Virus record (IMG/VR): IMGVR_UViG_3300020049_008481
DNA length: 49,704 nucleotides
DNA from: a virus
Lineage: Duplodnaviria > Heunggongvirae > Uroviricota > Caudoviricetes
Reading direction: 5' to 3' (one strand)
Shown in pieces: positions 25,918-49,704 of this stretch. The translations under genes were made by a program, and so were the position numbers. The notes below the pieces were generated by a model that saw only the letters and a list, made by a program, of their open reading frames with translations, did no database searches and was not told the DNA's origin. Each line of letters starts with the position of its first letter. Position 1 is the first letter of the stretch.

Positions 25918-25925
25918 ACTTGGTC

Positions 25926-27520: not shown

Positions 27521-27523
27521 ACT

Positions 27524-29473: not shown

Positions 29474-29487
29474 TTTAGCTCCTTAAG

Positions 29488-31584: not shown

Positions 31585-32357
31585 AAATTCTTAGCCTGTT
31601 CTATATGAGATAACCTATGAATAAACTCAGCCGTTATTCTATCGTAAGTAGGTGATTTTAGCTGTGAATCACCTGTCATCCTCATGTTCACTGGGTATTC
31701 AAGCCCGTAACCAAATTCCCCTATAAAATCATACTCACCGTTGGCTGCCGTCACCACGTAGTTGAGCGAACTGTAATCAAACAACACCGACAAGTCTGTA
31801 ACATATTTATCAGCATGGTCACCGATTAGAAAAATCAGATTTGTCTTAGTACAACCTACAAGGGTATATCCCTTAGTCTGCATCATTGATGTTATAGATT
31901 TAGCCCCTGAACCCCACATTGACCCTTCGTAATTAATCATGTCAATATGAGGTGGAACTGTAGGGTTGTATTCAATAACAACTATCTTGTGGGGAGTTTC
32001 CATTCTCTTTGCAATTTGATAATCATCACCATCAACATCAATCGAACAAACATCAGCAACTCTAGTCGTATGTTTGTCAATGTTAGTTACAAGAGCGTGT
32101 TCTATCCCTACACTGGGGTAGTTAGCAACTCTTCTTTTAAGCTTTCTGAATAAAGGAGCAGAAGATTCTATGAGTAAGGCGCTAGCGCCCCACTCTTTCC
32201 ATAGCCTGGCAGTGTTAGAACAGAACAGGCCGTCTGCAGCCCCAAACTCTATTACAAAGTTTGACCGCTCTTCTAAGGTAGATATTAGATAGGCTATAAT
32301 ACCGTCCTCACCATTTTGAGAATATACATTGTCCTTTAATTCATTTAAATTCTTCAT
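31581..32357 (-). CDS. FkbM-like methyltransferase
   Basis: VYSQNGEDGII, IEFGAADG, SIDVDGDDY, IEYNP. Confidence 0.75.
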   Translation of the reverse strand: MKNLNELKDNVYSQNGEDGIIAYLISTLEERSNFVIEFGAADGLFCSNTARLWKEWGASALLIESSAPLFRKLKRRVANYPSVGIEHALVTNIDKHTTRVADVCSIDVDGDDYQIAKRMETPHKIVVIEYNPTVPPHIDMINYEGSMWGSGAKSITSMMQTKGYTLVGCTKTNLIFLIGDHADKYVTDLSVLFDYSSLNYVVTAANGEYDFIGEFGYGLEYPVNMRMTGDSQLKSPTYDRITAEFIHRLSHIEQAKNL

Positions 32358-32366
32358 ATCATCTTT

Positions 32367-32576
32367 CTAGAGTGAGCAAGCAATCCAATTTCTTAATAAG
32401 ACCATCAATGGGGCCACATCGTAGACCATTAGATACGGATATCCATTAAATCTATAATGAAGCCTAACACTAAACCATCCTTTTAATAACCAATCACGAT
32501 CAGCATCTTTACCAAAACTATAAGTAGCACTTTTAAGCTTTATTATAGGGAAAGTAATGCCAGCAGGATTACTCAC
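32367..32576 (-). CDS. Small NW-motif protein (69 aa) inside glycosylation cluster
   Basis: Ends LRNWIACSL*. Confidence 0.7.
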   Translation of the reverse strand: MSNPAGITFPIIKLKSATYSFGKDADRDWLLKGWFSVRLHYRFNGYPYLMVYDVAPLMVLLRNWIACSL

Positions 32577-33381
32577 ATTCTATACCATGAATCTTGCAAG
32601 CGTTTCTAAAAACTTCTAAAGACTCTCCCATCCTTAGCTTACTCCATTTAGTCGAACCCTCATCTGAAATCGACCTGTGCCACTTATGGATTAACTTCGC
32701 TTCACCATAATAGACGTTCTTCCACCCATGACTGCGTAGGTGGTACCCATACCACGTGTCCTCATAGTACAACCTAGTTGGGAGCATGGCCCCTCTAGGA
32801 CTTGGGACTGCCTCCTTGTATAGTTCACAATCCCTCATCTCGTTCCAGGCATGACGTTTAGTAAATACAGCAGAACCTATAACGAACAATGAATCCTCTA
32901 TACAGGCTTGATAGCCCTTGGATGGGGTAGACCTCCACCCACGCTGTTTGGGGGCCGTAGCGGGGCCTACAACGCCCCCTGCGGTGATCCTACCAGCAAG
33001 GTCTACCTGCATGGGACCTAAAGAGCCATATGTTGAGTCTGACATCAGTTTATCTAGACATTTTTCTACAGTATTAGGCGTCAACATAACGTCATCATTT
33101 AAAAGCAGCGCCGCTGGATTATGTGTTAGAACCATACCTATATTACATGCTTCTCCATAAAAGATATTAGTATCAATATGGACAACCGCTCCCCCGACGT
33201 TCTCAACCAAAGAGCCGACCCTTAACCTGGTTGGTTCATCTCTTGGTGCCACATCTACAACTAGCAGGTTCTCTGCAATATTAGCTGACCGATGATCATC
33301 GAAGCTTCTTAAAAATGATTCTATCTCATTAACATGATTATAGGTTACTACGATTAGATCAATATCCGCATCTTTTGTCAT
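32569..33381 (-). CDS. Glycosyltransferase family 2
   Basis: LIVVTYN...NIFYGEACN...LLNDD...YYEDTWY...LIHKWHRS. Confidence 0.82.
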   Translation of the reverse strand: MTKDADIDLIVVTYNHVNEIESFLRSFDDHRSANIAENLLVVDVAPRDEPTRLRVGSLVENVGGAVVHIDTNIFYGEACNIGMVLTHNPAALLLNDDVMLTPNTVEKCLDKLMSDSTYGSLGPMQVDLAGRITAGGVVGPATAPKQRGWRSTPSKGYQACIEDSLFVIGSAVFTKRHAWNEMRDCELYKEAVPSPRGAMLPTRLYYEDTWYGYHLRSHGWKNVYYGEAKLIHKWHRSISDEGSTKWSKLRMGESLEVFRNACKIHGIECE

Positions 33382-34075
33382 AAACTCGTAGATCCCCCTG
33401 CTCCATACAATGCTTATTAGCTACTCTTCCATCCCAACCTAAGGTAACATTTTTCTCAGAACATGCCTTAGACCAACCAAGGTCCTCACCTAAATCATGA
33501 TATTGATAGTCAATAGCGTAAGCCTTTGAAGTCATTAATTTCAATGCCATAATAGCAGAAGTAGGGAAGACCCTATCTGAATCTCTTCTATCACAAATTT
33601 TAAAGCTGTTGGAATAAGACGGGTACATGGTACTCTTGCGAGTCATATAAACCTTCCCACCAACAGCATCAAACTCTTCTATAGATTCCATTAAATTAAC
33701 TAATGTCTGATGGTTAAGTAAAATATCAGAATCGATACTCAAGAAATACGATGGCTCTATATCTCTTACGAACCTCAATAATAGGTTTCTAACTTTCACC
33801 ATCCTAGAGTAATTAGGGGATTTTATTCCCCAATCCCTGACGTAAACCCCAGAAGGCTCCTGTTTATTCCGCACTAAAATAAAATCCCTATCTAAACGGG
33901 ATAAATAATCAGTGAATGCCTCGACAGAAGAGTCCCCATCGGGCGCAACAAGAATATACCTTGGCTCTACCTTTATCTTATATGCAGCATCCTCAACATG
34001 ATCAACCCAATCTTTAGCTATCCATGCTCTATCTTTAACCGGACAACCGACTAACAGCGGAGTGTGACCTGTCAT
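33359..34075 (-). CDS. GT-A fold glycosyltransferase
   Basis: VGCPVKDR...MVKVRN...LSIDSDI...GEDLGW. Confidence 0.75.
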   Translation of the reverse strand: MTGHTPLLVGCPVKDRAWIAKDWVDHVEDAAYKIKVEPRYILVAPDGDSSVEAFTDYLSRLDRDFILVRNKQEPSGVYVRDWGIKSPNYSRMVKVRNLLLRFVRDIEPSYFLSIDSDILLNHQTLVNLMESIEEFDAVGGKVYMTRKSTMYPSYSNSFKICDRRDSDRVFPTSAIMALKLMTSKAYAIDYQYHDLGEDLGWSKACSEKNVTLGWDGRVANKHCMEQGDLRVYDKRCGY

Positions 34076-36089: not shown

Positions 36090-36118
36090 AGTATAGCAGC
36101 TAAACCACCCTATGTCAA
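36090..36118 (-). promoter_or_regulatory. Consensus sigmaA/sigma70 promoter, leftward
   Basis: TTGACA-N17-TATACT with extended TG. Confidence 0.88.
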
Positions 36119-36123
36119 CCCCC

Positions 36124-36152
36124 TTGACAAAGTTTTTCTTCCATGGTATACT
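36124..36152 (+). promoter_or_regulatory. Consensus sigmaA/sigma70 promoter, rightward (Rpf)
   Basis: TTGACA-N17-TATACT with extended TG. Confidence 0.88.
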
Positions 36153-36263: not shown

Positions 36264-36761
36264 ATGCGCCAACTTTTATTAGCATGTTTTATCACAGTAA
36301 TGGTAGTATTGTCAAGTGGTTTTATAGTCGGGGCTGGAGAACCGGAGAAACCACAACCGAAACGGGTAGTTGTAGTAAATACCAAGGTTCCCCGAGACCT
36401 TAAAGCAGAAGCGTATTATATCAAGGTAATGGAATATGCAGCAGCAGTTCAGTACCAGAAAATACTACACTTCGCCTGGCTTATCGAACAGGCAAAGAAA
36501 CAAACCGCATACGGAGTATGGGATAGATTAGCAAATTGCGAATCTAGCGGTAACTGGTCCATTAACACTGGATCATTTGATGGGGGTCTCCAATTCCTCC
36601 CCTCAACGTGGGTTGCTCAGGGTGGCAGGCAGTATGCCCCTTACGCCTGGCAAGCAACTCGTGAGCAGCAAATCACTATAGCTGGGCGGCTATTGGCTTC
36701 CACAAACGGTAGCTACCGTGCTTCTTGGCCAGCTTGTTCAAGGCGGTTAGGATTACCATAA
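36264..36761 (+). CDS. rpf: Stand-alone resuscitation-promoting factor (Rpf) transglycosylase with signal peptide
   Basis: WDRLANCESSGNWSINTG...GGLQFLPSTW...ATREQQI...WPACS; hydrophobic N-terminus; SD AGGAGG. Confidence 0.9.
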   Translation: MRQLLLACFITVMVVLSSGFIVGAGEPEKPQPKRVVVVNTKVPRDLKAEAYYIKVMEYAAAVQYQKILHFAWLIEQAKKQTAYGVWDRLANCESSGNWSINTGSFDGGLQFLPSTWVAQGGRQYAPYAWQATREQQITIAGRLLASTNGSYRASWPACSRRLGLP

Positions 36762-38709: not shown

Positions 38710-38727
38710 AAAAAAGCAGGAGACTGC
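38710..38727 (-). terminator. Possible weak terminator
   Basis: GCAG TCTC CTGC followed by T6. Confidence 0.4.
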
Positions 38728-38728
38728 C

Positions 38729-38977
38729 CTAGTCATCTACCGGCATCTCGTAACTACAGAAAATCCAGTTAACTGGTTTACAGTTGAAACAGTATGATCT
38801 AAGAGTTCCATAGTATTCCAGAATGTCTAAATATGCTTTAGAGAATTTCATTGGATACTGTTTCTCTGTAATGGTTCTTCCGCATTCATCACAAATATGA
38901 ATAATCTGAATGTCATCTTGTGAATCATTTAAACCTACTATACCTAGAACAGACATGGTTGACTCTCTTAACCCCAC
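38729..38977 (-). CDS. Small NW-motif protein with zinc ribbon
   Basis: CDEC...CFNC; PVNWIFCSYEMPVDD*. Confidence 0.7.
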   Translation of the reverse strand: MGLRESTMSVLGIVGLNDSQDDIQIIHICDECGRTITEKQYPMKFSKAYLDILEYYGTLRSYCFNCKPVNWIFCSYEMPVDD

Positions 38978-39002
38978 TTCACACCTTAATGGGGAATAGG
39001 AA

Positions 39003-39050
39003 ATAAAATAAGCCCTACGCTGAATCTAATCGACGTAAGGCTTATTTTAT
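39003..39050 (-). terminator. Long hairpin/terminator
   Basis: ATAAAATAAGCCTTACG...CGTAGGGCTTATTTTAT on minus strand, with one G.U pair. Confidence 0.65.
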
Positions 39051-39055
39051 GAGAG

Positions 39056-39259
39056 TTATTTAAGAGAGACAGGAATCCAAGATAAGGGTCCTGTATTTGT
39101 TTCAGACCAACCTGCTAATCTGAACTTCATGTCTGACGCCATTCCTGGTATTCCGTATATGATTGTTGCTACTTGCCCGTTTGAAACTATAATCTTAAGG
39201 TTTAGTTCTGCGTTCCTTATTGATTTATGAAAGGTGTCTGAGTTGTGCCCATCCATCAA
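39056..39259 (-). CDS. Small NW-motif protein
   Basis: Ends PLSWIPVSLK*. Confidence 0.65.
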   Translation of the reverse strand: MMDGHNSDTFHKSIRNAELNLKIIVSNGQVATIIYGIPGMASDMKFRLAGWSETNTGPLSWIPVSLK

Positions 39260-40049
39260 AGTTTCCTAACGGTTCCTTACGCCAAGGCGTATACCATTTT
39301 ACTGGCTTAACTGGTGTAGCCACATGCTCTAGAGGACTATAGTGTGGGGGGTCTGCTGACACAAGCTTATCATACAGGTCCAGATCTTTAACCATATCCC
39401 GTATTCCATCATGGGTTAGATAGGAAACTCGTGCGCATCTTGCAGCCGACACCTTTTTTCTGTTCTCCACGTCTGCCATAAGGCTCTGTTCTAGGTCATC
39501 GTATTTAAGATATGGAGTATGCCATTCCCCATAATCAACATGCTGAACGTGTGAAAAGATCCATGCGTCCTTCATGAGTTCTGCAGCCACCCGTATTTCG
39601 GGTTGAGCATCAGGGCTGCATCTTTGATTAAAGAAGTTCTGCCACTCAGTTGAAGTGATTATAACCGTATGCCACATAAATGGCTCTAACAACCTGTTTG
39701 CAACCTGCTTATGTAAATGCATGTCCTGTAGCTTCTCCACCGTAGCTACAGCATGGTCTCGCTGCTTAAGCCATAGGCTTTCAGCTAAACGCTTACTGAT
39801 AACATCTATTTCCCCGTTGGCGCTCATCCCAGGTCCAGCTATACCCCATTCAATAGGCATAGCTGGGTTATTCTTCACTTCCTCTAAAGTTCTAGAAACC
39901 GGGACAGCCCTAGAGGACCTAGAGTTACGTGAAAAGGCTCTGTGAGTATTTAGCTCTGCCAGAACCCACCTATGGCAAGTGACTTCCATAGAAGTAAGCC
40001 GAACACCATTAGGGGATATGCTATCTAAAATGATCTTTGCAGAGGTCAT
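39225..40049 (-). CDS. thyX: FAD-dependent thymidylate synthase
   Basis: ELNTHRAFSRNSRSSRA (RHR-x7-S-type motif variant), ANRLLEPF, SAARCARVSY, HYSPLEH. Confidence 0.85.
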   Translation of the reverse strand: MTSAKIILDSISPNGVRLTSMEVTCHRWVLAELNTHRAFSRNSRSSRAVPVSRTLEEVKNNPAMPIEWGIAGPGMSANGEIDVISKRLAESLWLKQRDHAVATVEKLQDMHLHKQVANRLLEPFMWHTVIITSTEWQNFFNQRCSPDAQPEIRVAAELMKDAWIFSHVQHVDYGEWHTPYLKYDDLEQSLMADVENRKKVSAARCARVSYLTHDGIRDMVKDLDLYDKLVSADPPHYSPLEHVATPVKPVKWYTPWRKEPLGNFDGWAQLRHLS

Positions 40050-40255
40050 CTATTCTTCCTATCCCGCTTAGCAACCTTACATTTGGGGATATGGATTTTT
40101 TCCAGGAAGTCATCTGGCAGCCAAGTGTCAGGGAACCTTTGTGCCACACAACAGAACGGGCATTTCACTGAGTTAGGATGTCTAACTTTCGGCTTCGGCT
40201 TGATTGGTTCAAGGTCTTCACTACGGAAAACATATCTGTAGCTGTTGTTACTCAT
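40046..40255 (-). CDS. Hypothetical zinc-finger protein
   Basis: CPFC...HIPKC. Confidence 0.55.
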   Translation of the reverse strand: MSNNSYRYVFRSEDLEPIKPKPKVRHPNSVKCPFCCVAQRFPDTWLPDDFLEKIHIPKCKVAKRDRKNR

Positions 40256-40445
40256 GAAAATCTCCTAGATACATTAGTATCCAATTTGGTAGTAATGTTG
40301 ATTCTTGATTTGCTGCTTGTAGGTACTTTTTTATCTTCCAGCAGAAGTAGCATAGGTTCATCCTAAATCTAGCATACGATAGTTGGGCGAATGCGTCTGC
40401 TGTTGAATTTGTGTCTATCATCCCGCATATTTCACATGGTTTCAT
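40248..40445 (-). CDS. Small NW-motif protein with zinc ribbon
   Basis: CEIC...CYFC; LPNWILMYLGDFHE*. Confidence 0.65.
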   Translation of the reverse strand: MKPCEICGMIDTNSTADAFAQLSYARFRMNLCYFCWKIKKYLQAANQESTLLPNWILMYLGDFHE

Positions 40446-40636
40446 GTGTCATACGTTACCTCCTTCATGCTTGCAAAAATCCAGTTGGCTGGTAAAGGTC
40501 TTCTGTAGTTATCAAGGTTGTAGTAATGTATTTGCCCTCGATGGATAGTATTGCCTGTACTTACGTAGTATATCACTGCATACCAAATACTACCTTTATA
40601 GGTTTTGAATTCCCAACGTGTCTGTTCTCTATACAT
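40442..40636 (-). CDS. Small NW-motif protein
   Basis: PANWIFASMKEVTYDT*. Confidence 0.72.
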   Translation of the reverse strand: MYREQTRWEFKTYKGSIWYAVIYYVSTGNTIHRGQIHYYNLDNYRRPLPANWIFASMKEVTYDT

Positions 40637-40664
40637 TTAAACTACAGGCTGTCCAGACAACAAA
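40619..40664. repeat. Left copy of 46-bp perfect inverted repeat (partner 49659..49704)
   Basis: TGTCTGTTCTCTATACATTTAAACTACAGGCTGTCCAGACAACAAA equals reverse complement of the window end. Confidence 0.9.
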
Positions 40665-40859
40665 ATCATATGAAGAAATCCACCATCTACTGTTTTTTAG
40701 ATCGAACGCTAACCATTTAGAACTATCAAATGAACTTGTGCTTGATATTAGACCAGGCAAGATGCCGTGATTAAACCAGAAGTATTGAGCAAACTCACCT
40801 AACCTATAGTGGGTCTCTAGTCTATAAAATAACTGGTTTCTCTTTTTAATCCTGTTCAT
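40629..40859 (-). CDS. Small NW-motif protein
   Basis: FVVWTACSLNV*. Confidence 0.7.
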   Translation of the reverse strand: MNRIKKRNQLFYRLETHYRLGEFAQYFWFNHGILPGLISSTSSFDSSKWLAFDLKNSRWWISSYDFVVWTACSLNV

Positions 40860-41023
40860 TTCTTTTTCTTCTTATTACGGTTATAATAGTTAGGCTTCTT
40901 TTGGGGACGCATATTAACCGGCACCCAGCCCTTAGATCCAAGATGCCATTGCTCATGACATTTAGTGCAACAGCAGAAGTCGTCATCATAGATCATAGAG
41001 TAGGCGTGGTTGCACTTTCCCAT
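40856..41023 (-). CDS. Small Cys-rich protein (55 aa), degenerate motif
   Basis: Hand-translated MGKCNHAY...CCCTKCHEQW...KGWVPVNMR...KKKKK*; TAATG and ATGA overlaps. Confidence 0.55.
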   Translation of the reverse strand: MGKCNHAYSMIYDDDFCCCTKCHEQWHLGSKGWVPVNMRPQKKPNYYNRNKKKKK

Positions 41024-41268
41024 TAGATAGCTAACAAAGTAGTAGCATCATCAAAGTCCATACTGGCGGCAGGTTCTGCCCCAGACATTCTCATACACTT
41101 AAGAACCTTCTTCAAGTTGCTCTTAGTGCAGTTATGGTCTTTTTCTAACTTGTGGGTTAGCCTCACTAAACTAGCAACCTCTTGCTTAAGACGCTCTATC
41201 TCACCCATCATTAAAGTAACTACAGGTGGAGGTATGTCTTCTTCTAAGAGTTCTTCGATTGGTTCCAT
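41023..41268 (-). CDS. Hypothetical coiled-coil protein (81 aa)
   Basis: Heptad pattern; downstream of sigmaA promoter. Confidence 0.65.
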   Translation of the reverse strand: MEPIEELLEEDIPPPVVTLMMGEIERLKQEVASLVRLTHKLEKDHNCTKSNLKKVLKCMRMSGAEPAASMDFDDATTLLAI

Positions 41269-41294
41269 AAATACCTTTGTTCGTGTTAGTCATA

Positions 41295-41323
41295 ACTATA
41301 ACATACCTGACATATAATGTCAA
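41295..41323 (-). promoter_or_regulatory. SigmaA/sigma70 promoter
   Basis: TTGACA-N17-TATAGT. Confidence 0.78.
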
Positions 41324-41517
41324 GGCATTATTGAGCATATTGTCCAGTCTACTAGCGTGGTTATGGTAGAATAAAATGTTGGTCCGCCTAGACTTATTTT
41401 AGGTACAGCTATCTCTAATTTTAGTTCAGTCTCAGAGTATGTTAATGAAATAACTGAAGAGATATTGAAAACTACGAAAAAAACACCGGGGCCAATCAGG
41501 TGTATCTGTTTAATCAT
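41320..41517 (-). CDS. Small NW-motif protein
   Basis: LVDWTICSIMP*. Confidence 0.65.
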   Translation of the reverse strand: MIKQIHLIGPGVFFVVFNISSVISLTYSETELKLEIAVPKISLGGPTFYSTITTLVDWTICSIMP

Positions 41518-41553
41518 TGTAGTCCCGGAAATTTATATCCGACCATTTAGCCA

Positions 41554-41727
41554 CTACCCCGTCTCCGGGTCGTGGCGTTTGGTTGTGGCTGCTGTCCAGT
41601 TTGGGGTGCATGTGGCTTTGCCGTATTCTGTTGTATGGAATTGTCCTGTTAGTGTGTCGTATGTTAGGTCTGTGATGCCTCTGTTGTTTAGTGAAATAAA
41701 GTAGTATCTGTAGTATGTGTGTTTCAT
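41554..41727 (-). CDS. Small NW-motif protein
   Basis: Start at ATGA overlap 41727 (MKHTYY); TPNWTAATTK... Confidence 0.68.
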   Translation of the reverse strand: MKHTYYRYYFISLNNRGITDLTYDTLTGQFHTTEYGKATCTPNWTAATTKRHDPETG

Positions 41728-41870
41728 TTTATGCTGGCTGCTGTCCACCCTGGGTATCCGTGGTGTTGGGCTTTTATGACTATGGAGAATCCTTGCCGGT
41801 CTCCCCAGTATAGGCTTGGGCTGCTTGGGTTGTCGTATGCGATTCTGTAGATTGTTTGTAGTTGTTTCAT
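41724..41870 (-). CDS. Small NW-motif protein (48 aa, not in track)
   Basis: MKQLQTIY...YPGWTAASIK*; ATGA overlaps at both ends. Confidence 0.7.
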   Translation of the reverse strand: MKQLQTIYRIAYDNPSSPSLYWGDRQGFSIVIKAQHHGYPGWTAASIK

Positions 41871-42097
41871 TTTATTGAAGCTACGGTCCAGTTTTTTAAC
41901 TGTAGGCTCGTGGGGGCTGGGGCGTATCTGCCTCTTGCTCTGAATAGGTATAGAAATATTCCGTCATAGTTCCGGTGGACGCAACGGGGCTGGGGTTGGA
42001 ACTCACGCACACGATGCCGTGCTAGTCGCCGGTCGGTTTCAAGTTCATATGTTATCATGGCGTGTTCTGATTTGTAGATTAGATACTGTTGGTACAT
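41867..42097 (-). CDS. Small NW-motif protein
   Basis: Probable start MYQQ at 42097; LKNWTVASIK*. Confidence 0.68.
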   Translation of the reverse strand: MYQQYLIYKSEHAMITYELETDRRLARHRVREFQPQPRCVHRNYDGIFLYLFRARGRYAPAPTSLQLKNWTVASIK

Positions 42098-42282
42098 GGT
42101 TTTCTCAGTGGTTTTATGGATGCTACAGTCCAGTTTGTGGGGTAACAGTTCCAAGTCCCATAATGGGGTCGGTTGGTTTCGAAGAAGCCGGGGGTTGATC
42201 CTTCATAAAGGTAGGCTACAGTGTCCCCGTTGTCGTCGTGGTACAATTGTAGGTTGTTGTCTACTACTGTGAAGTGTTTCAT
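42079..42282 (-). CDS. Small NW-motif protein
   Basis: PTNWTVASIKPLRKPCTNSI*. Confidence 0.7.
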   Translation of the reverse strand: MKHFTVVDNNLQLYHDDNGDTVAYLYEGSTPGFFETNRPHYGTWNCYPTNWTVASIKPLRKPCTNSI

Positions 42283-42428
42283 TTTCTAACTATAATCCAA
42301 TTTTTCATTAGGTATGCCCAGTATGAATCTCGCAAATACACTCTGCCTCCATCGTAGAGTATTTTTGATACAGTGCCTGGCCACTCTAGGCGTGCAAATC
42401 CTGGTTGCTGATGTTTTATATTGAGCAT
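42279..42428 (-). CDS. Small NW-motif protein (49 aa, not in track)
   Basis: MLNIKHQQPGFARLEWP...MKNWIIVRK*. Confidence 0.68.
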   Translation of the reverse strand: MLNIKHQQPGFARLEWPGTVSKILYDGGRVYLRDSYWAYLMKNWIIVRK

Positions 42429-42568
42429 AGGATTATATTCCCTGGGTAACAGCTGGGTCCATTAACAGTAAAGTATACGAAACCCCTTGAGTAATATACC
42501 GTTATCTTTTCCGACCATTTTATTGCTGCGAAGCCAGTGTGATCTTGGTGCACTATTTTAGGTTTCAT
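42416..42568 (-). CDS. Small NW-motif protein, degenerate (50 aa, not in track)
   Basis: MKPKIVHQDHTGFAAIKWS...PGNIILCSI*. Confidence 0.62.
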   Translation of the reverse strand: MKPKIVHQDHTGFAAIKWSEKITVYYSRGFVYFTVNGPSCYPGNIILCSI

Positions 42569-42723
42569 TTTATTGTGGCCGCTGTCCAGTAAGCATTATA
42601 CATGATGTCGCCATAGAATTGGAATGTTCCTGAGTTGTGTGCATAAAACATTTCTATACTGCTGAAACGCCAGCGAAATAAAGTTGCACTCATATTACTG
42701 TGGTTTTTTAAGTACGTGTACAT
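42565..42723 (-). CDS. Small NW-motif protein (52 aa, not in track)
   Basis: MYTYLKNH...NAYWTAATIK*. Confidence 0.68.
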   Translation of the reverse strand: MYTYLKNHSNMSATLFRWRFSSIEMFYAHNSGTFQFYGDIMYNAYWTAATIK

Positions 42724-42914
42724 CAGCTTATTGTGCATACTATCCAGTTCATTTTATCGCCAGGGGATCTAAAGTCCATTGTTGTAGTGCTTAGCATCTT
42801 TAGCGTAACGCCATGATTTGCACTATATACGAATATAACATCGGAAGGGGACGAGTTAACTCTCCATCCAAATGATGCAACACCTAGATTTGAATTGTGA
42901 CTGCGGATTACCAT
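42723..42914 (-). CDS. Small NW-motif protein
   Basis: KMNWIVCTIS*. Confidence 0.68.
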   Translation of the reverse strand: MVIRSHNSNLGVASFGWRVNSSPSDVIFVYSANHGVTLKMLSTTTMDFRSPGDKMNWIVCTIS

Positions 42915-42923
42915 TTGTTATCT

Positions 42924-43151
42924 TTATTCTGATGGGCAAACGATCCAAGCGGAAGGGATTATCATCCAGCCGCTGCACCCTACACAATACATCAACCAGT
43001 CCATTGTGTCAAGGGGGGCAAATTGGTATCCCCAATTGAACTTGCATTGGCACGGATACTTGGTTGAGTTGTGCCCTTTTACGTTAAAGAATAGATTGTA
43101 ATTAACTGAGTTGCTGGGTGGTTTATTTGGGTTAACTGGTACTACAGACAT
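42924..43151 (-). CDS. Small NW-motif protein with zinc-binding Cys
   Basis: Probable start MSVVP at 43151; CQC...CVGC; PSAWIVCPSE*. Confidence 0.62.
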   Translation of the reverse strand: MSVVPVNPNKPPSNSVNYNLFFNVKGHNSTKYPCQCKFNWGYQFAPLDTMDWLMYCVGCSGWMIIPSAWIVCPSE

Positions 43152-43330
43152 ACCAAAACCCAGTTCGTGGGTAGTTGCATGTAGGTGTGGCAGACCGGGC
43201 AATCAATGTAGTTGCCGTCGGTCCATACCGAAATACGGATGGGGAGTTTATGGTGCAACCACTTGTAATGTTTACATGCAGGTTTTTCTCTGGCACCAAC
43301 GAAGGTGCCAGTTATTAGAGCAATCGTCAC
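43142..43330 (-). CDS. Small NW-motif protein with zinc ribbon
   Basis: CKH...CPVC; PTNWVLVCL*. Confidence 0.65.
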   Translation of the reverse strand: MTIALITGTFVGAREKPACKHYKWLHHKLPIRISVWTDGNYIDCPVCHTYMQLPTNWVLVCL

Positions 43331-43358
43331 ATAAAGTACAACGGTTCTTCGATTAATA

Positions 43359-43841
43359 TCATTCCCTCAACTTAGAACACTCCCTGGCAATCTGCCTTCT
43401 TCTCTGTCGGTTGCAAGAATCTATAATACAAATTCCATCCAAGTGATCCATTTCATGTTGGAACACTACAGCCAAATCTCCGGTTGCATCAATCTCTAGA
43501 GGATTGAAGTTTTCATCCCAACCATGTAGCTTAAGCTCATTTAGCCTTTGCATCGTAACTTGATGTCCAGGCGCTGACAGGCAGCCCTCGGTGGATTCTA
43601 TAACTGTGCCTTCAATTGGCAGATCGAACCAAGGGTTAAACACTGCCCCACGGTCTACACCGATGTTCCACACGAAACATCTACCTGAAACATTAATTTG
43701 TGGGGCAGCTAAGCCGACGCCATCAAACTTGTCCATGATGCTAAACATGTTATCTATGAGTAACTTGTATTGATCTTGGTGTTCTTCTAAGTCAAACAGG
43801 ATTGCTTTTCTTTTTAGAATTTCATTTCCATAGTAAATCAT
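43359..43841 (-). CDS. def: Peptide deformylase
   Basis: GVGLAAPQI, EGCLS, QHEMDHLDG; probable start MIYYG at ATGA overlap 43841. Confidence 0.93.
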   Translation of the reverse strand: MIYYGNEILKRKAILFDLEEHQDQYKLLIDNMFSIMDKFDGVGLAAPQINVSGRCFVWNIGVDRGAVFNPWFDLPIEGTVIESTEGCLSAPGHQVTMQRLNELKLHGWDENFNPLEIDATGDLAVVFQHEMDHLDGICIIDSCNRQRRRQIARECSKLRE

Positions 43842-43996
43842 TTTATGCTCCCGACTATCCAATTGGACATTTTAAAAAATTCGTTATCAGTTGTAAATCC
43901 ACTTATACCTAACATAAGCTCTCCAAAAATATAGGACAGTATGATTATGTCACATTCATATACTGACTCGATTATTCTCTTACCTGGCATATACAT
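43838..43996 (-). CDS. Small NW-motif protein (52 aa, not in track)
   Basis: MYMPGKRI...MSNWIVGSIK*; fills the gap between sigma and def exactly. Confidence 0.68.
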   Translation of the reverse strand: MYMPGKRIIESVYECDIIILSYIFGELMLGISGFTTDNEFFKMSNWIVGSIK

Positions 43997-44737
43997 TTAG
44001 AGACTTAACGATTGGAAACTGAGCCTGGCGTCTTCAATGGCCCGACCGTGGATCTGGCAGACTCTTGATTCTGTTATTCCCATTAACGTTCCTATTTCTG
44101 ATAAAGGTAAGTTTTCGTAATAATACAATGTAAAGATTATGCGTTCCCTATCGGAAAGGCCATTGATGATCTTCACAAGATAGTCTCTTACTAACGCGAT
44201 CGAATAGTTTGCATCTAAAGTGTCGTTGCTTTCAATAGACTCACCTACTGTGCTATAGTTCTCATCGTTAATTGGCGCATCAAGTGTCCCAATAGTACCG
44301 ATTGCAGAATGCGACTCTGCTTTCTTTACGAAGGTCGTGCTGACATCTAAGTGATCACTTATTTCTTGGATAGTGACTGGCCTATCGTATTCATTCTCGA
44401 GAATTTCTCGAGCTTCCTTGACTTCTTTTGATCTAGATTTTACACTTCGTGGAACCCAGTCGTTAGCTCTAAGCTTATCAATCATTGAGCCACGTATTCT
44501 AATTACAGCGAATGATTCAAACTTTACACCACGCTCCGGGTCATACCGTTTAATTGCTTCCATTAAACCGAATACGCCATCTGACTCTAAATCTTCTTTG
44601 TCGATATTGGATGGCAACGTCGAGTGTAGCCTGCTTGCCACAAATTTTACTAAAGGAAGATATGCTGTAACAAGTTCTTCGAATAAAATGTTTGAATGTG
44701 TTTCTTTATATTTAACCCATGTTTCCCTAGATACCAT
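43997..44737 (-). CDS. RNA polymerase sigma factor, FliA/WhiG (sigma28) family
   Basis: YLPLVKFVASR, DLESDGVFGL..AIKRYDPERGVKFESFA..RIRGSMIDKLR..DWVPRS, LSEIG..MGITESRVCQIH. Confidence 0.9.
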   Translation of the reverse strand: MVSRETWVKYKETHSNILFEELVTAYLPLVKFVASRLHSTLPSNIDKEDLESDGVFGLMEAIKRYDPERGVKFESFAVIRIRGSMIDKLRANDWVPRSVKSRSKEVKEAREILENEYDRPVTIQEISDHLDVSTTFVKKAESHSAIGTIGTLDAPINDENYSTVGESIESNDTLDANYSIALVRDYLVKIINGLSDRERIIFTLYYYENLPLSEIGTLMGITESRVCQIHGRAIEDARLSFQSLSL

Positions 44738-44743
44738 CTTTGT

Positions 44744-44752
44744 ATTATAGCA
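44744..44752 (-). promoter_or_regulatory. Extended -10 promoter, leaderless (sigma gene)
   Basis: TGC TATAAT then 6 nt then ATG 44737. Confidence 0.65.
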
Positions 44753-44912
44753 TATCCTTCAAAGAGACAGGAATAAAATTGATGGGAAGTAGAATTATCG
44801 TTCCGTCCGTTGCGTTCTTGACAGGCCAGATTTGGACTGCAATAGTACGGGCAGAGAAAGTCAACTATGGGACTTCTGTTTTACCCAGGTAAAATTGGGG
44901 AGTAAACTTCAT
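44745..44912 (-). pseudogene. NW-motif family member interrupted by in-frame TAG (44865-44867)
   Basis: MKFTPQFYLGKTEVP*LTFS...PINFIPVSLKDML*; ATGA-coupled start. Confidence 0.5.
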
Positions 44913-45106
44913 AATATAACTGGAATGAAATTTAATGGGAACACGTAGAAGGAACTCCATGACGACGTTGGTAAAGTTCTTTTGCGATGTTGAGTCCACC
45001 ATTCATCTTGTGTTAACTCATATGGAAGAGATGAAACCCAAAGGATGTGTTGAAAATCAGGGTACATCTTTGGCGTATGAGGCAAGTAGCTCATTTTGAA
45101 GTTCAT
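44909..45106 (-). CDS. Small NW-motif protein (W->F variant)
   Basis: Start at ATGA overlap 45106; PLNFIPVIL*. Confidence 0.62.
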   Translation of the reverse strand: MNFKMSYLPHTPKMYPDFQHILWVSSLPYELTQDEWWTQHRKRTLPTSSWSSFYVFPLNFIPVIL

Positions 45107-45261
45107 TTTAGACATCCGACTATCCAATTATATGGGCACCAGTATCTAGAGGTGTAATGGTTTCCAGGTTTATGGTAGGTAACCATTAAAAGATTTCTGA
45201 CTGGTGACTTTCTATCTATTTTCGATATCTTCTGATGTGTTTCAATGCTTATTCTAGACAT
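45103..45261 (-). CDS. Small NW-motif protein (52 aa, not in track)
   Basis: MSRISIET...PYNWIVGCLK*. Confidence 0.68.
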   Translation of the reverse strand: MSRISIETHQKISKIDRKSPVRNLLMVTYHKPGNHYTSRYWCPYNWIVGCLK

Positions 45262-45404
45262 CCAACAATCCAATTCAACGGCAAATTAAAGTACCCTCTC
45301 ATAGCTTTGCAAATAAAAAACTGATGGGTGTTAGAAAAAGACAGATATACAGAAATATAATATCCGTGCCCATCAGAAAAACTCATTTTTATAAGCTTGA
45401 TCAT
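45249..45404 (-). CDS. Small NW-motif protein (51 aa, not in track)
   Basis: MIKLIKMS...PLNWIVGCLE*. Confidence 0.68.
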   Translation of the reverse strand: MIKLIKMSFSDGHGYYISVYLSFSNTHQFFICKAMRGYFNLPLNWIVGCLE

Positions 45405-45407
45405 GTA

Positions 45408-45662
45408 TCAAGTGTCGGCTTCTTTCACAGACACTGCAATCCAATTACCTGGAAGGACAAGAGCCTGCCGGTCCTTGAATTGCAGGAAACAAAATTTACT
45501 CTGATGATACCAGATAGCACTCACGTCATGTTCCCAAACAGGATGGAAATCATCACGGTACATGGTGCTGTAGGCTTCGATGCAGTCGAATATGAATCTT
45601 AAATCCTGTACAACCCCTGGCCTGAACATACTGAGGAAAGGTTCATTAATTTCAAAACTCAT
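45408..45662 (-). CDS. Small NW-motif protein
   Basis: PGNWIAVSVKEADT*. Confidence 0.72.
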   Translation of the reverse strand: MSFEINEPFLSMFRPGVVQDLRFIFDCIEAYSTMYRDDFHPVWEHDVSAIWYHQSKFCFLQFKDRQALVLPGNWIAVSVKEADT

Positions 45663-45835
45663 ATAAACCCTAAAATCCAGTTATTAATTTTGGCACATCG
45701 CCAAGTATTAGCGTTTGTTTGTTGGGTGAAAATGGCGCAGTATCCATCTCGGATATGAAATTCGACTAGAGGGCTAGCTGGCTTTTCAAAGTTACCTACC
45801 ACTACAGTTCCCAACCCAGCTACGAAAAAGATCAT
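45659..45835 (-). CDS. Small NW-motif protein (58 aa, not in track)
   Basis: MIFFVAGL...INNWILGFI*; ATGA overlaps at both ends. Confidence 0.66.
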   Translation of the reverse strand: MIFFVAGLGTVVVGNFEKPASPLVEFHIRDGYCAIFTQQTNANTWRCAKINNWILGFI

Positions 45836-46047
45836 TTAAGCGAGACCGCAATCCAATTGTTCATGTAAATCATGCATTCTGCTAAAAAACATAAACCAAA
45901 CGAAAGAACTCCATCATCGGACCCGTCAGGGTCAGGGTCTTCATTCGCATACCATAAAAAGTCACCATCACTATGAAGACACTCAGTGTCATGAGCAATA
46001 GGTGCATCTATTGGAATGATCATGTAGTGTCCATACTGTGATCCCAT
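45832..46047 (-). CDS. Small NW-motif protein
   Basis: MNNWIAVSLK*. Confidence 0.72.
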   Translation of the reverse strand: MGSQYGHYMIIPIDAPIAHDTECLHSDGDFLWYANEDPDPDGSDDGVLSFGLCFLAECMIYMNNWIAVSLK

Positions 46048-46111
46048 GAGAGGCCCCTAGATCGCTCTGTGTGCCGTTTCTAGACGGTTTATGGGGTAGG
46101 GGTGCCTAGAG

Positions 46112-46327
46112 CTAATCCTGGCCATTAGGATACGTTTCCAGGGTCTGCCAAATAAACCGGCCAGGAGAAGCACTGCCATAAAAATCATCCCAAACTTTTT
46201 CAGGCACATCAATATATTTCCAACGCACCCCGTCATCGAAGATTACATGAACAATCTTTTTCTTTTTATCATAATAGGCCCCATCAACTCTACTGGAACC
46301 AGCGAAAGCACGTCTAAGATATTTCAT
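46112..46327 (-). CDS. KTSC-domain protein
   Basis: SSRVDGAYYD...HVIF..G..WKY.DVP..VW..F..SASPGRF. Confidence 0.82.
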   Translation of the reverse strand: MKYLRRAFAGSSRVDGAYYDKKKKIVHVIFDDGVRWKYIDVPEKVWDDFYGSASPGRFIWQTLETYPNGQD

Positions 46328-46332
46328 ATAAA

Positions 46333-47910
46333 CTACTTTACCATACCTGTCAAGTGGTTTTTAACAATTAACCCATACGGAGAAGGAGTCCCCAACCCAT
46401 TACTAGTAACAAGAGTAGGCCCATCACAATTTTCACCCTTGTCCCAGCCCCAGGCTGTATAAGAAAACCCTCTGGCGTCTGCGTAACTCATTGTATTCTC
46501 AGTGAAACCATCAGAAACACCGGAGCACATCCACTCACCGAATTCACCAATCAGAATAGGGAACGAAGAACTTAAACCACCAGAAGCAAAGCTGCCATCC
46601 AAATAGGCGACGTTCCTCACATTAGCCCCACTAGAAGTGTAAGTATGAATGCTTGCTGCGATCTGGCCCGTTAAATCAACAGGTCGATAATTCATCCAGT
46701 TGTCCATAGAGTTACCCCAACCAAGCCCCTCAATAAATATCACGTTCTTTGAGCCAGTATTACGGATAGCGTTCAAAAGCTCCTGGGTTCCCACAATGTC
46801 AATAGTCGAGCCAACAGGCTGCTGAGGAAAATCCTCAAACTTATAAGTGTAAGTACAGCCGTTCAAATAACAGCCCCAACCGTAAGCTACAGCCTGACTA
46901 TAATCCCCTTGGCAAGCAGGAGTATGGCACCAAATACGTGGCTCGTTATACAGGTCGAAAGCAACGGCAGGATTAGTTTTATACTGCTCAGCAACTAAAC
47001 CCCAGAACGGTAGAGAATGTTCACGGTTAGGTCCAACATCCTGACTCATAGCAATAGTATTACCGGGAGATGACCAGTGAAGATCCAAAATCACATACCT
47101 GCCAGAAGCAGTAAGCTTATCTACCAAAGACTTGACAAAGGCTCTATACGGTTCACCAGAATAAGGGCCAGGGGCCGTACCCAACCAGCAAGACTCATTG
47201 AGCGGCAGCCTAACTGTGTTTATAGAATGCTCACTAGAACCAGCTTTATCCCAAGTGGACAAAGAAGAAACAACAGTATCAGTATAGGCGGGGCTACGCC
47301 CACCAACCACTTCATCATCGTCAGTCATAAAACCTGCCCAGCCTGGGTTCTCACTGTAAGCCACACACCTGAACTCAAGGCTAGGTCTATTCACACCACG
47401 CAACTGCGCAATAGCACCAGATTCGTTAACAAGGTTCTTACCACTAACCTTCAAAGACTTGACTGATGGGGCCACGTCATCGTTAGTGATCTGCCCGAAC
47501 CCCAAACCCCAAAATCCACCCATCTTAGCGTTAACTGGCTTAGTGAAAGAAAACACCACATACTCATTGGCTTCAACAGTTGTGTCACCGTACACTACAA
47601 CACTTACGGTCTTAGAAGTTTCACCTGGGGCAAACGTAACCACACCAGATCCGGCTGCATAATCAATCAAGTCAGCCTGACTGGCAGGCGCATTACCAAC
47701 CACCCTGGTAGTCCAATTCACACTAACAGGCACGGTCGACGGGGCAGTTAAAGAGACATTCTGGACCAAGACGGCAGTCCCAGTGTTGCCTTCTACGACT
47801 TCACCAGTTCCGGGTACCACTAAAGGTAAGGTGGCAGCACTACCTACTGGTGTCGTTAAGACGGCAGATAGGATGATTACAGCAGATAGAAGTTTAAGTA
47901 AAAGGCTCAT
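46333..47910 (-). CDS. Secreted glycoside hydrolase family 5 (cellulase-like) with Calx-beta domain
   Basis: Signal peptide; DYAAGSGVVTFAPGETSKTV...GDTTVEANE (Calx-beta); RGVN, ILDLHW, LYNEP, IHTY, IGEFG, AWGW (GH5). Confidence 0.88.
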   Translation of the reverse strand: MSLLLKLLSAVIILSAVLTTPVGSAATLPLVVPGTGEVVEGNTGTAVLVQNVSLTAPSTVPVSVNWTTRVVGNAPASQADLIDYAAGSGVVTFAPGETSKTVSVVVYGDTTVEANEYVVFSFTKPVNAKMGGFWGLGFGQITNDDVAPSVKSLKVSGKNLVNESGAIAQLRGVNRPSLEFRCVAYSENPGWAGFMTDDDEVVGGRSPAYTDTVVSSLSTWDKAGSSEHSINTVRLPLNESCWLGTAPGPYSGEPYRAFVKSLVDKLTASGRYVILDLHWSSPGNTIAMSQDVGPNREHSLPFWGLVAEQYKTNPAVAFDLYNEPRIWCHTPACQGDYSQAVAYGWGCYLNGCTYTYKFEDFPQQPVGSTIDIVGTQELLNAIRNTGSKNVIFIEGLGWGNSMDNWMNYRPVDLTGQIAASIHTYTSSGANVRNVAYLDGSFASGGLSSSFPILIGEFGEWMCSGVSDGFTENTMSYADARGFSYTAWGWDKGENCDGPTLVTSNGLGTPSPYGLIVKNHLTGMVK

Positions 47911-47931
47911 ACGTTTGTTCTCGGAATATGG

Positions 47932-48102
47932 CTAAGATAAAGAACAGGCTATCCAGTTGAAATCTATAGTTTGGATGTCACGGGCATACCCATCTAATAT
48001 ATCTGTTCCGTACACATAAAACTTTAGACCATCGTGGTAATAAAGGGTAAGCCTATAGAGTGTCAAGTTTATCCTTAAAGCTCTCTCTAGAATTACAGAC
48101 AC
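47932..48102 (-). CDS. Small NW-motif protein (56 aa, not in track)
   Basis: GTG start; DFNWIACSLS*. Confidence 0.64.
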   Translation of the reverse strand: MSVILERALRINLTLYRLTLYYHDGLKFYVYGTDILDGYARDIQTIDFNWIACSLS

Positions 48103-48299
48103 ACTGGTATCCAGTTTGTTTTAACCCATCCACCTTGCCGGTGCCTGTCTGATGTCCAAGTGATACCAATTACCCCCGTATGATTATAACTCAGCACTAA
48201 ATTATTCTGGATATCATTAAACTGAAATTGTGCCCAAAACCCTATAAAAGCACCTTCAGAATTATAGGTGCCGCCTTCATCAACTAAATGCAATGTCAT
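48093..48299 (-). CDS. Small NW-motif protein
   Basis: KTNWIPVCL*. Confidence 0.7.
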   Translation of the reverse strand: MTLHLVDEGGTYNSEGAFIGFWAQFQFNDIQNNLVLSYNHTGVIGITWTSDRHRQGGWVKTNWIPVCL

Positions 48300-48484
48300 C
48301 GTAAACTCACCACAATCCAGTTATAATCATGACGATGCCCTACATGGGAAACCCAAACCTGCCCCATAGGCTTAAAAAAGTAATACAAACGTAATTTGGG
48401 ATCACTAAGCCAAAAAAATAATATAGCGTCAGAGTATCTTTCTGAAATTCTCATCTGATTCCATATAGTTTCTGAATCAGTCAC
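48296..48484 (-). CDS. Small NW-motif protein
   Basis: DYNWIVVSLR*. Confidence 0.72.
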   Translation of the reverse strand: MTDSETIWNQMRISERYSDAILFFWLSDPKLRLYYFFKPMGQVWVSHVGHRHDYNWIVVSLR

Positions 48485-48696
48485 TTCAAACTCGCAATAA
48501 TCCAGTTAGGCATTCTCGACGGGTTGCGACGATCTTCCACAAGAAGATACAATGTAAGACCAATGTAATCATCATCCACTCCAAGCATAGGCTGTCCCAT
48601 CCAAGTTATAGCATTCCTGTACTGAGGTGCGTCATCACTCCAGAAAAATTCTGCATATAGCCCCGATGAATCAACCCATGCCTCTAAATTACTCAC
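48481..48696 (-). CDS. Small NW-motif protein
   Basis: MPNWIIASLK*. Confidence 0.72.
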   Translation of the reverse strand: MSNLEAWVDSSGLYAEFFWSDDAPQYRNAITWMGQPMLGVDDDYIGLTLYLLVEDRRNPSRMPNWIIASLK

Positions 48697-48877
48697 CTAA
48701 AGACCCCAAAATCCAATTTAGCTCCCACACGTTATTCACATCCATAAGAAGAAGCCCGCTGGAACTACTGTGCTAGCGCAGCCAAAGGTGATGAGTATTT
48801 CCGGTCTCATCGCTAAAGGGGGTAAATCGAAATGTAGCCCATGGCTGGGATGGCTCCCCCATCCGTAAAAGTCTCAC
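48689..48877 (-). pseudogene. NW-motif family member interrupted by in-frame TAG (48773-48775)
   Basis: GTGA-coupled start MRLLRMGE...HLWLR*HSSS...ELNWILGSLGE*. Confidence 0.5.
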
Positions 48878-49035
48878 TTTAAGCTCGCCAAAATCCAAGA
48901 GAATGAACAGTTGTCACGTTGATCCGAAATCACTACCAGCCCCGAGTTAGGATACCACCATAGATAAAGTGAATCATCAAACTTAAAACACCTAGAAGAC
49001 TGAGGATCAGCATACCTCCACCTGTAGTTACTCAA
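48874..49035 (-). CDS. Small NW-motif protein (53 aa, not in track)
   Basis: TTG start uncertain; SFSWILASLK*. Confidence 0.58.
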   Translation of the reverse strand: MSNYRWRYADPQSSRCFKFDDSLYLWWYPNSGLVVISDQRDNCSFSWILASLK

Positions 49036-49095
49036 AATTTAAATCCCATTTCACGTACTCGCAGCCACTGTAATAATCTACATGCCTTGACATTC

Positions 49096-49281
49096 TCAAT
49101 TTAAACTCACCGCTATCCAGGGAACCAGAAAAGGCTGATGATCAAGGCCACTAATGAAACGAGAATTTTCATACATATAAATCACGAAAGAACACGTGTT
49201 AGTGAACATCCAATAACAGAGAAGGACGGTAGTATCACTCCAGAAGAATTCTGCACCATACATAGTAGATGTCATTTTCAA
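49096..49281 (-). CDS. Small NW-motif protein
   Basis: LVPWIAVSLN*. Confidence 0.7.
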   Translation of the reverse strand: MKMTSTMYGAEFFWSDTTVLLCYWMFTNTCSFVIYMYENSRFISGLDHQPFLVPWIAVSLN

Positions 49282-49454
49282 TTTAAACTCATCCCCACCA
49301 TAATCCAGTTAACCCGACAAACTGAAATCGAAGCACCAGAGTAAGCGCATAAACACCTGAACCCATTAAAATCATACACCCCAACAACAGTAACATCATA
49401 ATAATTTCCAAACTGGAAATCAACAGAACCTGGCACAATACGGGTTGTTTTCAT
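49278..49454 (-). CDS. Small NW-motif protein
   Basis: Start at ATGA overlap 49454 (MKTT); RVNWIMVGMSLN*. Confidence 0.68.
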   Translation of the reverse strand: MKTTRIVPGSVDFQFGNYYDVTVVGVYDFNGFRCLCAYSGASISVCRVNWIMVGMSLN

Positions 49455-49630
49455 TTCAAACTCACTAGAACCCAATTAACCGTACAACCCCACCTATCAA
49501 ACTCAGAAACCTCAGGATCTTTAGCCCCAGAAAGCCCTGCATTAAGGCCATTCCAACCATCTAACAAATGCATAAACCAAACCAAATACACCACCCGTTT
49601 GGGTTGTATTGTATCAAGTGTTTGATACAT
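49451..49630 (-). CDS. Small NW-motif protein (59 aa, not in track)
   Basis: MYQTLDTI...TVNWVLVSLK*. Confidence 0.68.
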   Translation of the reverse strand: MYQTLDTIQPKRVVYLVWFMHLLDGWNGLNAGLSGAKDPEVSEFDRWGCTVNWVLVSLK

Positions 49631-49658
49631 TATTGTTCTAGTGGCATGGGTTGTGCCA

Positions 49659-49704
49659 TTTGTTGTCTGGACAGCCTGTAGTTTAAATGTATAGAGAACA
49701 GACA
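49659..49704. repeat. Right copy of 46-bp perfect inverted repeat, truncated by window end
   Basis: Exact reverse complement of 40619..40664. Confidence 0.9.

Follow-up and report, generated by a model that had tools for sequence, protein, structure and literature searches.

The 49,704-nt window analysed here (IMG/VR record IMGVR_UViG_3300020049_008481) is the last 49.7 kb of a contig of about 131 kb (130,702 nt) from an uncultured phage, and its minus strand encodes a family of small proteins that share a short C-terminal motif, hereafter the tag. The listing of open reading frames (ORFs) and six-frame motif scans identified 32 intact small ORFs of 39-84 aa with the tag at or near the C-terminus between 38729 and 49630. 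Another intact member at 32367-32576 brings the total to 33, and one frameshifted copy is also found. A first-pass annotation of this DNA had described many small ORFs with a common C-terminal motif, and the present counts bear it out. Across about 33 genes, selection can be demonstrated from the sequence alone on eight C-terminal residues and on nothing else. We give about an even chance to the explanation that this orphan family consists of very old tandem duplicates of one small beta-sheet protein, whose C-terminal strand has been kept as a common contact surface.

Constraint on the C-terminal tag

The tag follows the consensus (P-x)-N-W-[I/T/V]-x-x-[S/C/T]-[L/I/M]-K or a close variant of it, in which the second residue after Trp is hydrophobic and the third small. 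A Pro is found one to three residues before the motif in about half of the members, and the stop codon comes 0-3 residues past the motif in 25/33, the other 8/33 having 4-11 extra residues. The strict core W[ITV]xx[SCT][LIMV] is present within the last 20 aa of 23/33 members, as compared to a mean of 0.12 (maximum 2) in 1000 residue shuffles, and translating the region in all six frames yields it 26 times, versus 2.3 times in base shuffles. Motif counts over a whole record were made on a 61-kb IMG/VR record (G000) that is 99.8% identical to the window, and in this record 25 ORFs on the gene strand terminate in the strict core, as do 2 on the opposite strand. A Gibbs motif search of the full sequences found the tag with a log-likelihood ratio of 625, against about 390 in shuffles. 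Pairs of members are on average 42% identical over the 8-aa tag and 6% identical over the 20 aa that precede it.

When the tags are aligned as codons, positions 1 and 2 of the codons carry much information and position 3 next to none. The tag Ser is encoded by AGY in about 10 members and by TCN in about 9, and Cys (TGY) and Thr (ACA), the one-step intermediates between the two Ser codon sets, occur at the same tag position; the Leu codons likewise include both TTR and CTN. Individual Ser codons listed in the first-pass annotation were all read as claimed (Table 1). Where two tags have the same residue at the same position, its codon is shared in 38.9% of 1246 comparisons, and 36.5% is expected from codon usage. 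The 3-periodic conservation, codon sharing at the usage expectation and the switch between AGY and TCN together show that selection on the tag acts on the peptide and not on the DNA, in agreement with the earlier annotation. Since codon sharing is so near expectation, the synonymous sites of the tags are saturated and the copies old, with no sign of recent gene conversion.

These observations bear directly on the idea that the conserved stretch is a nucleic-acid signal, such as an RNA structure, a recombination site or an element for restart or ribosome binding at the next overlapping gene, which would be in frame only through including the stop codon. The motif does often abut a stop codon that has bases in common with the next start codon (14 ATGA-type junctions), the final Lys-plus-stop (AAATGA or AAGTGA) is partly accounted for by the overlapping start codon, and the GNG-AGY codons of the copies at 48-49 kb give a weak Shine-Dalgarno-like GAG. 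However, third codon positions are free, Ser and Leu switch between codon sets, codon sharing does not exceed what codon usage predicts, and the substitutions are conservative in the protein (W/F, I/T/V, S/C/T). The Trp codon and the next start are 11 to 201 nt apart, and a fixed cis-acting role in re-initiation is therefore unlikely. The nucleic-acid explanation is thus largely refuted and we consider it extremely improbable.

A proposed origin by tandem duplication

The favoured explanation begins with a lineage-specific tandem expansion of one small beta-rich ancestral protein. Purifying selection across the family would have held only the C-terminal stretch (P-x)-N-W-[I/T/V]-hydrophobic-small-[S/C/T]-[L/I]-K, and the remainder of each protein would have drifted, or been driven, to random-level similarity. 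The conserved stretch would most likely be the last beta-strand of each protein and would serve as a common contact surface, since folding alone is unlikely to have kept one strand fixed in a 50-aa protein that has otherwise randomised. By strand pairing, every member might bind the same thing, be it another copy, a sibling or one constant partner from phage or host, and the bodies would be free to vary. Expression may be early or middle, as suggested by the sigma factor, peptide deformylase and ThyX genes in the same run and by the location of the array at the contig end; the operon and the contig-end position also suggest a role in host takeover or counter-defence. What we infer here is that the genes have a common ancestor, that the tag acts by strand pairing, that expression is early and that a partner exists.

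Local tandem duplication with a long divergence after it is suggested by the tandem order of the genes, their one size class, a shared composition, weakly similar neighbours and the clustering of tag subtypes by position. The bodies are about 2x enriched in W, Y, F, H and C and depleted in A and E. Residual body similarity was found in three neighbour pairs (42568/42428, 42914/42723 and 49275/48696), the last of these also at the DNA level. Among the tag subtypes, W-T-A-A is grouped at 41.5-42.7 kb, WIVGCL at 45.1-45.4 kb and NFIPV at 44.7-45.1 kb. The same order, size class, composition and neighbour pairs speak for common descent where the first-pass annotation had seen unrelated modules. 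Its four members with paired Cys motifs (38729, 40248, 42924 and 43142) are present, the motifs being of the CxxC/CxC type; the Pfam Zn_ribbon_CSL model matched one member weakly (E 0.057).

AlphaFold2 (AF2), run with a paralog alignment, modelled the 53-aa member at 48874-49035 as an antiparallel meander with strands at residues 17-19, 23-28, 33-40 and 44-51, the last strand being the tag. Mean predicted local distance difference test score (pLDDT) was 64, with 70-78 over residues 21-53. A Foldseek search of this model against the PDB gave no match at E <= 0.001, and in a wide search with VIA-align the best Z of 4.4 was at background, the matches being mostly single propeller blades and other four-strand meanders. 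For one member the ESM Atlas gave no model (best score 0.75). Complex prediction of the capsid protein with the 53-aa member scored 0.00 with the partner poorly folded, a result that has no bearing either way.

A number of results weigh against descent from one beta-sheet protein. Pairwise phmmer comparison of the tag-removed bodies gave 10 weak pairs, and 3-8 were obtained in shuffles; leave-one-out hidden Markov models of the bodies beat 95% of shuffles for 5/33 only; profile-profile comparison (hhalign) of five body subgroups gave probabilities <2%; a Gibbs search of the bodies reached 389 bits, with 384 +/- 3 when shuffled, and was likewise at background with a reduced alphabet; and blastn between the bodies at the DNA level, a test for frame-shifted homology, returned one significant match, which was in-frame and 22 nt long. 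With five tests at the level of shuffles, common descent of the bodies lies beyond demonstration by sequence, and the dissimilarity of bodies noted at first pass is upheld at this level. Structural support comes from one model of modest confidence (mean pLDDT 64), and the model of the Cys/His-rich member at 43142-43330 was of low confidence (pLDDT 57), with one hairpin and an unpaired tag. Three metagenome copies of the phage have an array that is 100% identical, and such copies yield no ratio of non-synonymous to synonymous substitution (dN/dS).

Search for relatives

The family alignment gave no match when 5.8 billion proteins were searched by indexed words. Exhaustive profile search of 1.84 billion representatives, of the kind that the first-pass annotation had proposed for phage and other proteomes, returned only the phage's own proteins, a repeat-junk match (P0125) and a protein with carbohydrate-binding modules (CBM) of type CBM5/12 (P0126). 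Pfam and PHROGs gave no match to any member, and comparison of the profile with PDB sequences gave one chance NWI match. The tag pattern at the DNA level had 7 single chance matches and no arrays in IMG/VR; in metagenome contigs it matched at least 120 loci, and among the matches listed none had 3 or more tag-ending ORFs. Megablast against the phage collection found no match. The family is not found in GX15bay, the only relative in the phage collection, or in a contig of a metagenome-assembled genome (MAG) that encodes a 67% identical capsid protein and was read 30 kb upstream, past the HU gene. It thus appears to be new, without relatives in the databases searched and confined to one sampled lineage, and the earlier statement that no described phage family of this architecture was known is in line with the Pfam, PHROGs and protein-collection searches.

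Genome setting and members of the family

All long genes of the window are on the minus strand, bar a single one near 36 kb. In the order of transcription, the small-gene block (49.7 to 38.7 kb) is followed by an HU-like protein, a glycosyltransferase-rich block, an intein-containing large terminase, portal-region and scaffold-like genes, a YonB-like capsid protein of HK97 fold (13467-14429) and tail genes. The minus strand at 38729-49630 is tiled by about 40 small ORFs, broken only by genes for a GH5 cellulase with a Calx-beta domain, a KTSC-domain protein, a sigma-70-family factor, peptide deformylase and ThyX (Table 1). All family members but one are inside this single tiled run at the end of the contig, and the family makes up roughly a third of the ORFs in the 50-kb stretch. 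Of 39 junctions in the array, 24 are overlapping and 14 of these are ATGA-type 4-nt overlaps. The family ORFs look coding, as their own frame was the best of six in 27/33 when codon usage was trained on the long genes of the phage and as the junctions overlap. Scans of the window for tRNA genes and Rfam families gave no match.

Table 1. Tagged family members and other features of the small-gene array, in order of transcription. The stop codon follows the last residue given.
Position	Strand	Feature	Length (aa)	Tag and end	Remarks
49451-49630	-	member	59	NWVLVSLK	Ser AGT
49278-49454	-	member	58	NWIMVGMSLN	P0128 in profile search
49096-49275	-	member	59	PWIAVSLN	Ser AGT
48874-49035	-	member	53	SWILASLK	AF2 target
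48694-48877	-	probable frameshifted copy	34 (ORF 48877-48773)	NWILGSLGE	tag in other-frame short ORF that follows
48481-48696	-	member	71	NWIIASLK	Ser AGT; P0123 in profile search
48296-48484	-	member	62	NWIVVSLR	Ser AGT
48093-48299	-	member	68	NWIPVCL	P0122 in profile search
47932-48102	-	member	56	NWIACSLS	
46333-47910	-	GH5 cellulase with Calx-beta domain			N-terminal signal-like segment; interspersed
46112-46327	-	KTSC-domain protein		without tag	PF13619; interspersed
45832-46047	-	member	71	NWIAVSLK	Ser TCG; P0124 in profile search
45659-45835	-	member	58	NWILGFI	
45408-45662	-	member	84	NWIAVSVK then EADT	P0121 in profile search
45249-45404	-	member	51	NWIVGCLE	
45103-45261	-	member	52	NWIVGCLK	
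44909-45106	-	member	65	NFIPVIL	F for W
44745-44864	-	member	39	NFIPVSLK then DML	
43997-44737	-	sigma-70-family factor			regions 2, 3, 4; interspersed
43838-43996	-	member	52	NWIVGSIK	abuts sigma stop, overlaps deformylase start
43359-43841	-	peptide deformylase			interspersed
43142-43330	-	member	62	NWVLVCL	Cys/His-rich body; second AF2 target
42924-43151	-	member	75	AWIVCPSE	CxC...CxxC body
42723-42914	-	member	63	NWIVCTIS	
42565-42723	-	member	52	YWTAATIK	
42416-42568	-	member	50	GNIILCSI	degenerate tag without Trp; body similar to 42279-42428
42279-42428	-	member	49	NWIIVRK	
42079-42282	-	member	67	NWTVASIK then 11 residues	
41867-42097	-	member	76	NWTVASIK	
41724-41870	-	member	48	GWTAASIK	
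41554-41727	-	member	57	NWTAATTK then 7 residues	P0127 in profile search
41320-41517	-	member	65	DWTICSIMP	
40629-40859	-	member	76	VWTACSLNV	
40442-40636	-	member	64	NWIFASMK then EVTYDT	
40248-40445	-	member	65	NWILMYL then GDFHE	CxxC...CxxC body
39225-40049	-	ThyX thymidylate synthase			interspersed
39056-39256	-	member	66	SWIPVSLK	Ser TCT
38729-38956	-	member	75	NWIFCSY then EMPVDD	CxxC...CxxC body; last gene of run
38713-38730	-	terminator-like hairpin and T-run			directly after last array gene; pattern match only
32367-32576	-	outlying member	69	NWIACSL	Ser TCA; between glycosyltransferase-region genes

The run also includes small ORFs without the tag. A 55-aa Cys-rich ORF at 40856-41023 (minus strand) has no terminal tag but an internal KGWVPVNM, which is possibly a degenerate tag ahead of a Lys-rich tail, and two more tag-less small ORFs are found at 41023-41268 (acidic) and 40046-40255 (Cys-rich). 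Most array genes lack anything like a Shine-Dalgarno sequence within 20 nt upstream of the start and begin inside the preceding gene or directly after it; their translation therefore probably depends on coupling.

Every independent assembly of the phage breaks near window position 49594 and then runs into a different inverted copy of internal array sequence. At the window end (within 49576-49704) there is a 46-nt exact reverse complement of 40619-40664, the start of G000 (G000:C1:1-135) is a 96% inverted copy of 45601-45736, and locus L014 (L014:1-288) opens with a 97% copy of 41963-42070, after which comes a fold-back of 49591-49665. The cause may be a physical end of the genome, chimeric assembly or a second inverted array that has diverged.

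Back-to-back sigma-70-like promoter matches (11/12) with an extended -10 flank the only long plus-strand gene (36090-36152 and 36264-36761, plus strand). In L014 the same gene carries Pfam PF06737, an Rpf-type transglycosylase-like domain. Such domains are typical of Actinobacteria and their phages, and the gene may give a hint at the host; the deformylase, taken as another pointer to the host, had distant and scattered matches. The large terminase region (18598-22719, minus strand) has a match to an intein-splicing domain, and in the MAG relative (L011:1484-3934 and 5171-7879) both the terminase (816 aa, intein) and the gene in the portal position (902 aa, homing-endonuclease matches) are invaded. 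Downstream of the array lies a block of genes for 200-325-aa proteins (about 25000-34000, minus strand), and at the same relative position the distant relative GX15bay has an annotated endoglucanase, a mannanase and many glycosyltransferases, which suggests that the GH5 gene and the downstream block form a conserved polysaccharide-handling module.

Alternative explanations

The first-pass annotation had proposed a modular system of variable bodies and a constant docking peptide. Peptide-level constraint and body diversity agree with this proposal; the independence of the bodies, the free-peptide nature of the tag and a partner would be further assumptions. In a broad form of it, about 33 sequence-unrelated bodies would dock by C-terminal strand addition onto one receptor, which might be each other (as mixed rings of single-blade-like subunits), the capsid or a host hub. 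We regard this as unlikely; if such a universal plug were true, the phage would have a combinatorial set of modules for host takeover or surface binding, all addressed through one short linear motif, and we know of no system of this kind described for phages. More narrowly, unrelated bodies could present a free C-terminal peptide to one receptor, for example the inside or outside of the HK97-fold capsid, and be packaged or displayed, which is very unlikely in our judgement. This version would account for a tag that is the sole conserved element, with bodies at random-level similarity, and that sits at the extreme C-terminus; the end of the tag, hydrophobic-x-hydrophobic-small-S-L-K, also resembles the encapsulin cargo peptide (consensus DGSLGIGSLKG; native PLTVGSLRRGG; PMC7925596), and the capsid protein of the phage is of the HK97-type fold family. 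However, Trp and Asn, the best-kept residues, are without counterpart in the encapsulin peptides, Gly precedes Ser in about 5/33 members only and no flexible linker is found ahead of the tag. A free docking peptide also fits poorly with the only moderately confident AF2 model, the better of the two, in which the tag is the last strand of the protein's own sheet. Loading into the virion, as had been put forward, is hard to reconcile with genes that are outside the structural module, in a translationally coupled run with sigma, deformylase and ThyX genes and 24-36 kb from the capsid gene. Many phages have capsid proteins that are 62-68% identical to that of this phage, and one of them, in the 30 kb read upstream, is without the family.

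Conservation that is limited to a short hydrophobic C-terminal peptide could also mean that the tag is recognised by host machinery for reading such peptides, for example a PDZ-type tail-specific protease or an AAA+ protease or its adaptor; the copies would be decoys, competitors or a means of tag dose, and the bodies would drift neutrally. Proteases that read C-terminal tails are known (ssrA-type tags, Prc/Tsp, DegS), and the high copy number in one operon and bodies that are apparently unconstrained save in composition are compatible with such a role. But the 4-11 residues after the motif in 8/33 members mean that it is not always a free C-terminus, and many tags end in Lys rather than in a hydrophobic residue, so that this explanation is quite unlikely. 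It is highly improbable, in our view, that the members are very diverged stand-alone CBM5/12-type mini-domains or a single propeller-blade-like lectin unit, with the tag as the last conserved Trp strand. Such an origin would suit aromatic-rich bodies in a phage with a secreted GH5 cellulase, encoded inside the array, and a glycosyltransferase block. The sole match in 1.84 billion proteins that is neither self nor junk is P0126. Each of its four repeats of Pfam CBM_5_12 closes with PPRP-[TN]-N-W-[TA]-P-[VL]-[SP], and the four-stranded meander of the model had weak structural matches that were mostly propeller blades (Z up to 4.4). However, no member matches PF02839, even at E <= 0.1 to 1, hhalign to the four P0126 repeats covers 18 tag columns only with a probability of 35%, the P0126 E-value is inflated by repeats like that of the junk match P0125, a Z of about 4 is background for a VIA-align search, and the proteins are without signal peptides. 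No CBM was among the listed structural matches of the low-confidence AF2 model. P0126 is a 336-aa membrane-anchored protein from elsewhere, and its likeness to the family is kept as a lead only.

Some known signals were considered and rejected. A sortase, PEP-CTERM or lipobox signal was dismissed, there being no signal peptide and no trailing membrane segment, the patterns of clamp-binding, FtsZ-tail and ssrA-like motifs do not fit, and an integron attC-like site was set aside on account of the codon-periodic conservation.

Comparison with known systems

Eukaryotes and encapsulins offer well-known cases in which a short linear motif addresses many proteins to one partner, but phages, to our knowledge, hardly any. 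With encapsulin cargo the family has in common a short C-terminal peptide on proteins that are otherwise unrelated; the peptide ends in small-S-L-[K/R] and is hydrophobic ahead of this. The encapsulin receptor is an HK97-fold shell, the fold family of the phage capsid protein. The tag is at the extreme C-terminus in 25/33 members, but it differs from cargo peptides in its Asn-Trp, in an unconserved Gly that leaves it without the G-S-L consensus, in having no flexible linker and in being modelled in the protein's own sheet, and the genes are away from the shell gene (24-36 kb) rather than next to it.

The T4 internal proteins carry their targeting sequence at the N-terminus; it binds to the scaffolding core, and the prohead protease cuts it off. 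As in T4, one short peptide, which would be an address signal, is found across several unrelated small phage proteins, but the motif of the present family is C-terminal, its N-termini are unrelated and its genes are outside the head module, and T4-type capsid targeting, the analogy drawn at first pass, is thus a poor match. Precursors of prochlorosin-type lanthipeptides have a constant, long N-terminal leader, a hypervariable remainder and a modifying enzyme encoded in the genome, and a constant segment in precursor-peptide families implies one reader for many substrates. The likeness lies in about 30 genes per genome with one constant short segment and otherwise unrelated sequence; unlike those precursors, the family has no modifying enzyme in view by the array, and its variable parts are of 40-75 aa and of a fold-like, beta-rich composition. 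The CBM5/12 units (PF02839) are similarly small (about 45-55 aa), aromatic-rich and beta-rich, and the repeats of P0126 end in the tag-like P-x-N-W-T-P-V-S-L, but no family member reaches the Pfam model and only the tag columns align profile-to-profile.

Lineage-specific tandem families of small proteins, including "genomic accordion" expansions, are known in large phages and large DNA viruses. The present family resembles them in its dozens of small, tightly packed genes on the same strand in a non-structural region (32/33 members within 11 kb), with one size class, a conserved, selected motif near the C-terminus and absence from related phages. It is unlike them in that whole-protein homology is not seen: nothing beyond 8-11 C-terminal residues is detectably shared and the bodies are at shuffle level. 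If the tail is a contact peptide, it would offer a route to its partner and a handle on a large block of phage "dark matter" genes. Should it be no more than the folding core of a mini-domain that evolves fast, the array would still be a clear example of how far paralogs diverge with one strand kept.

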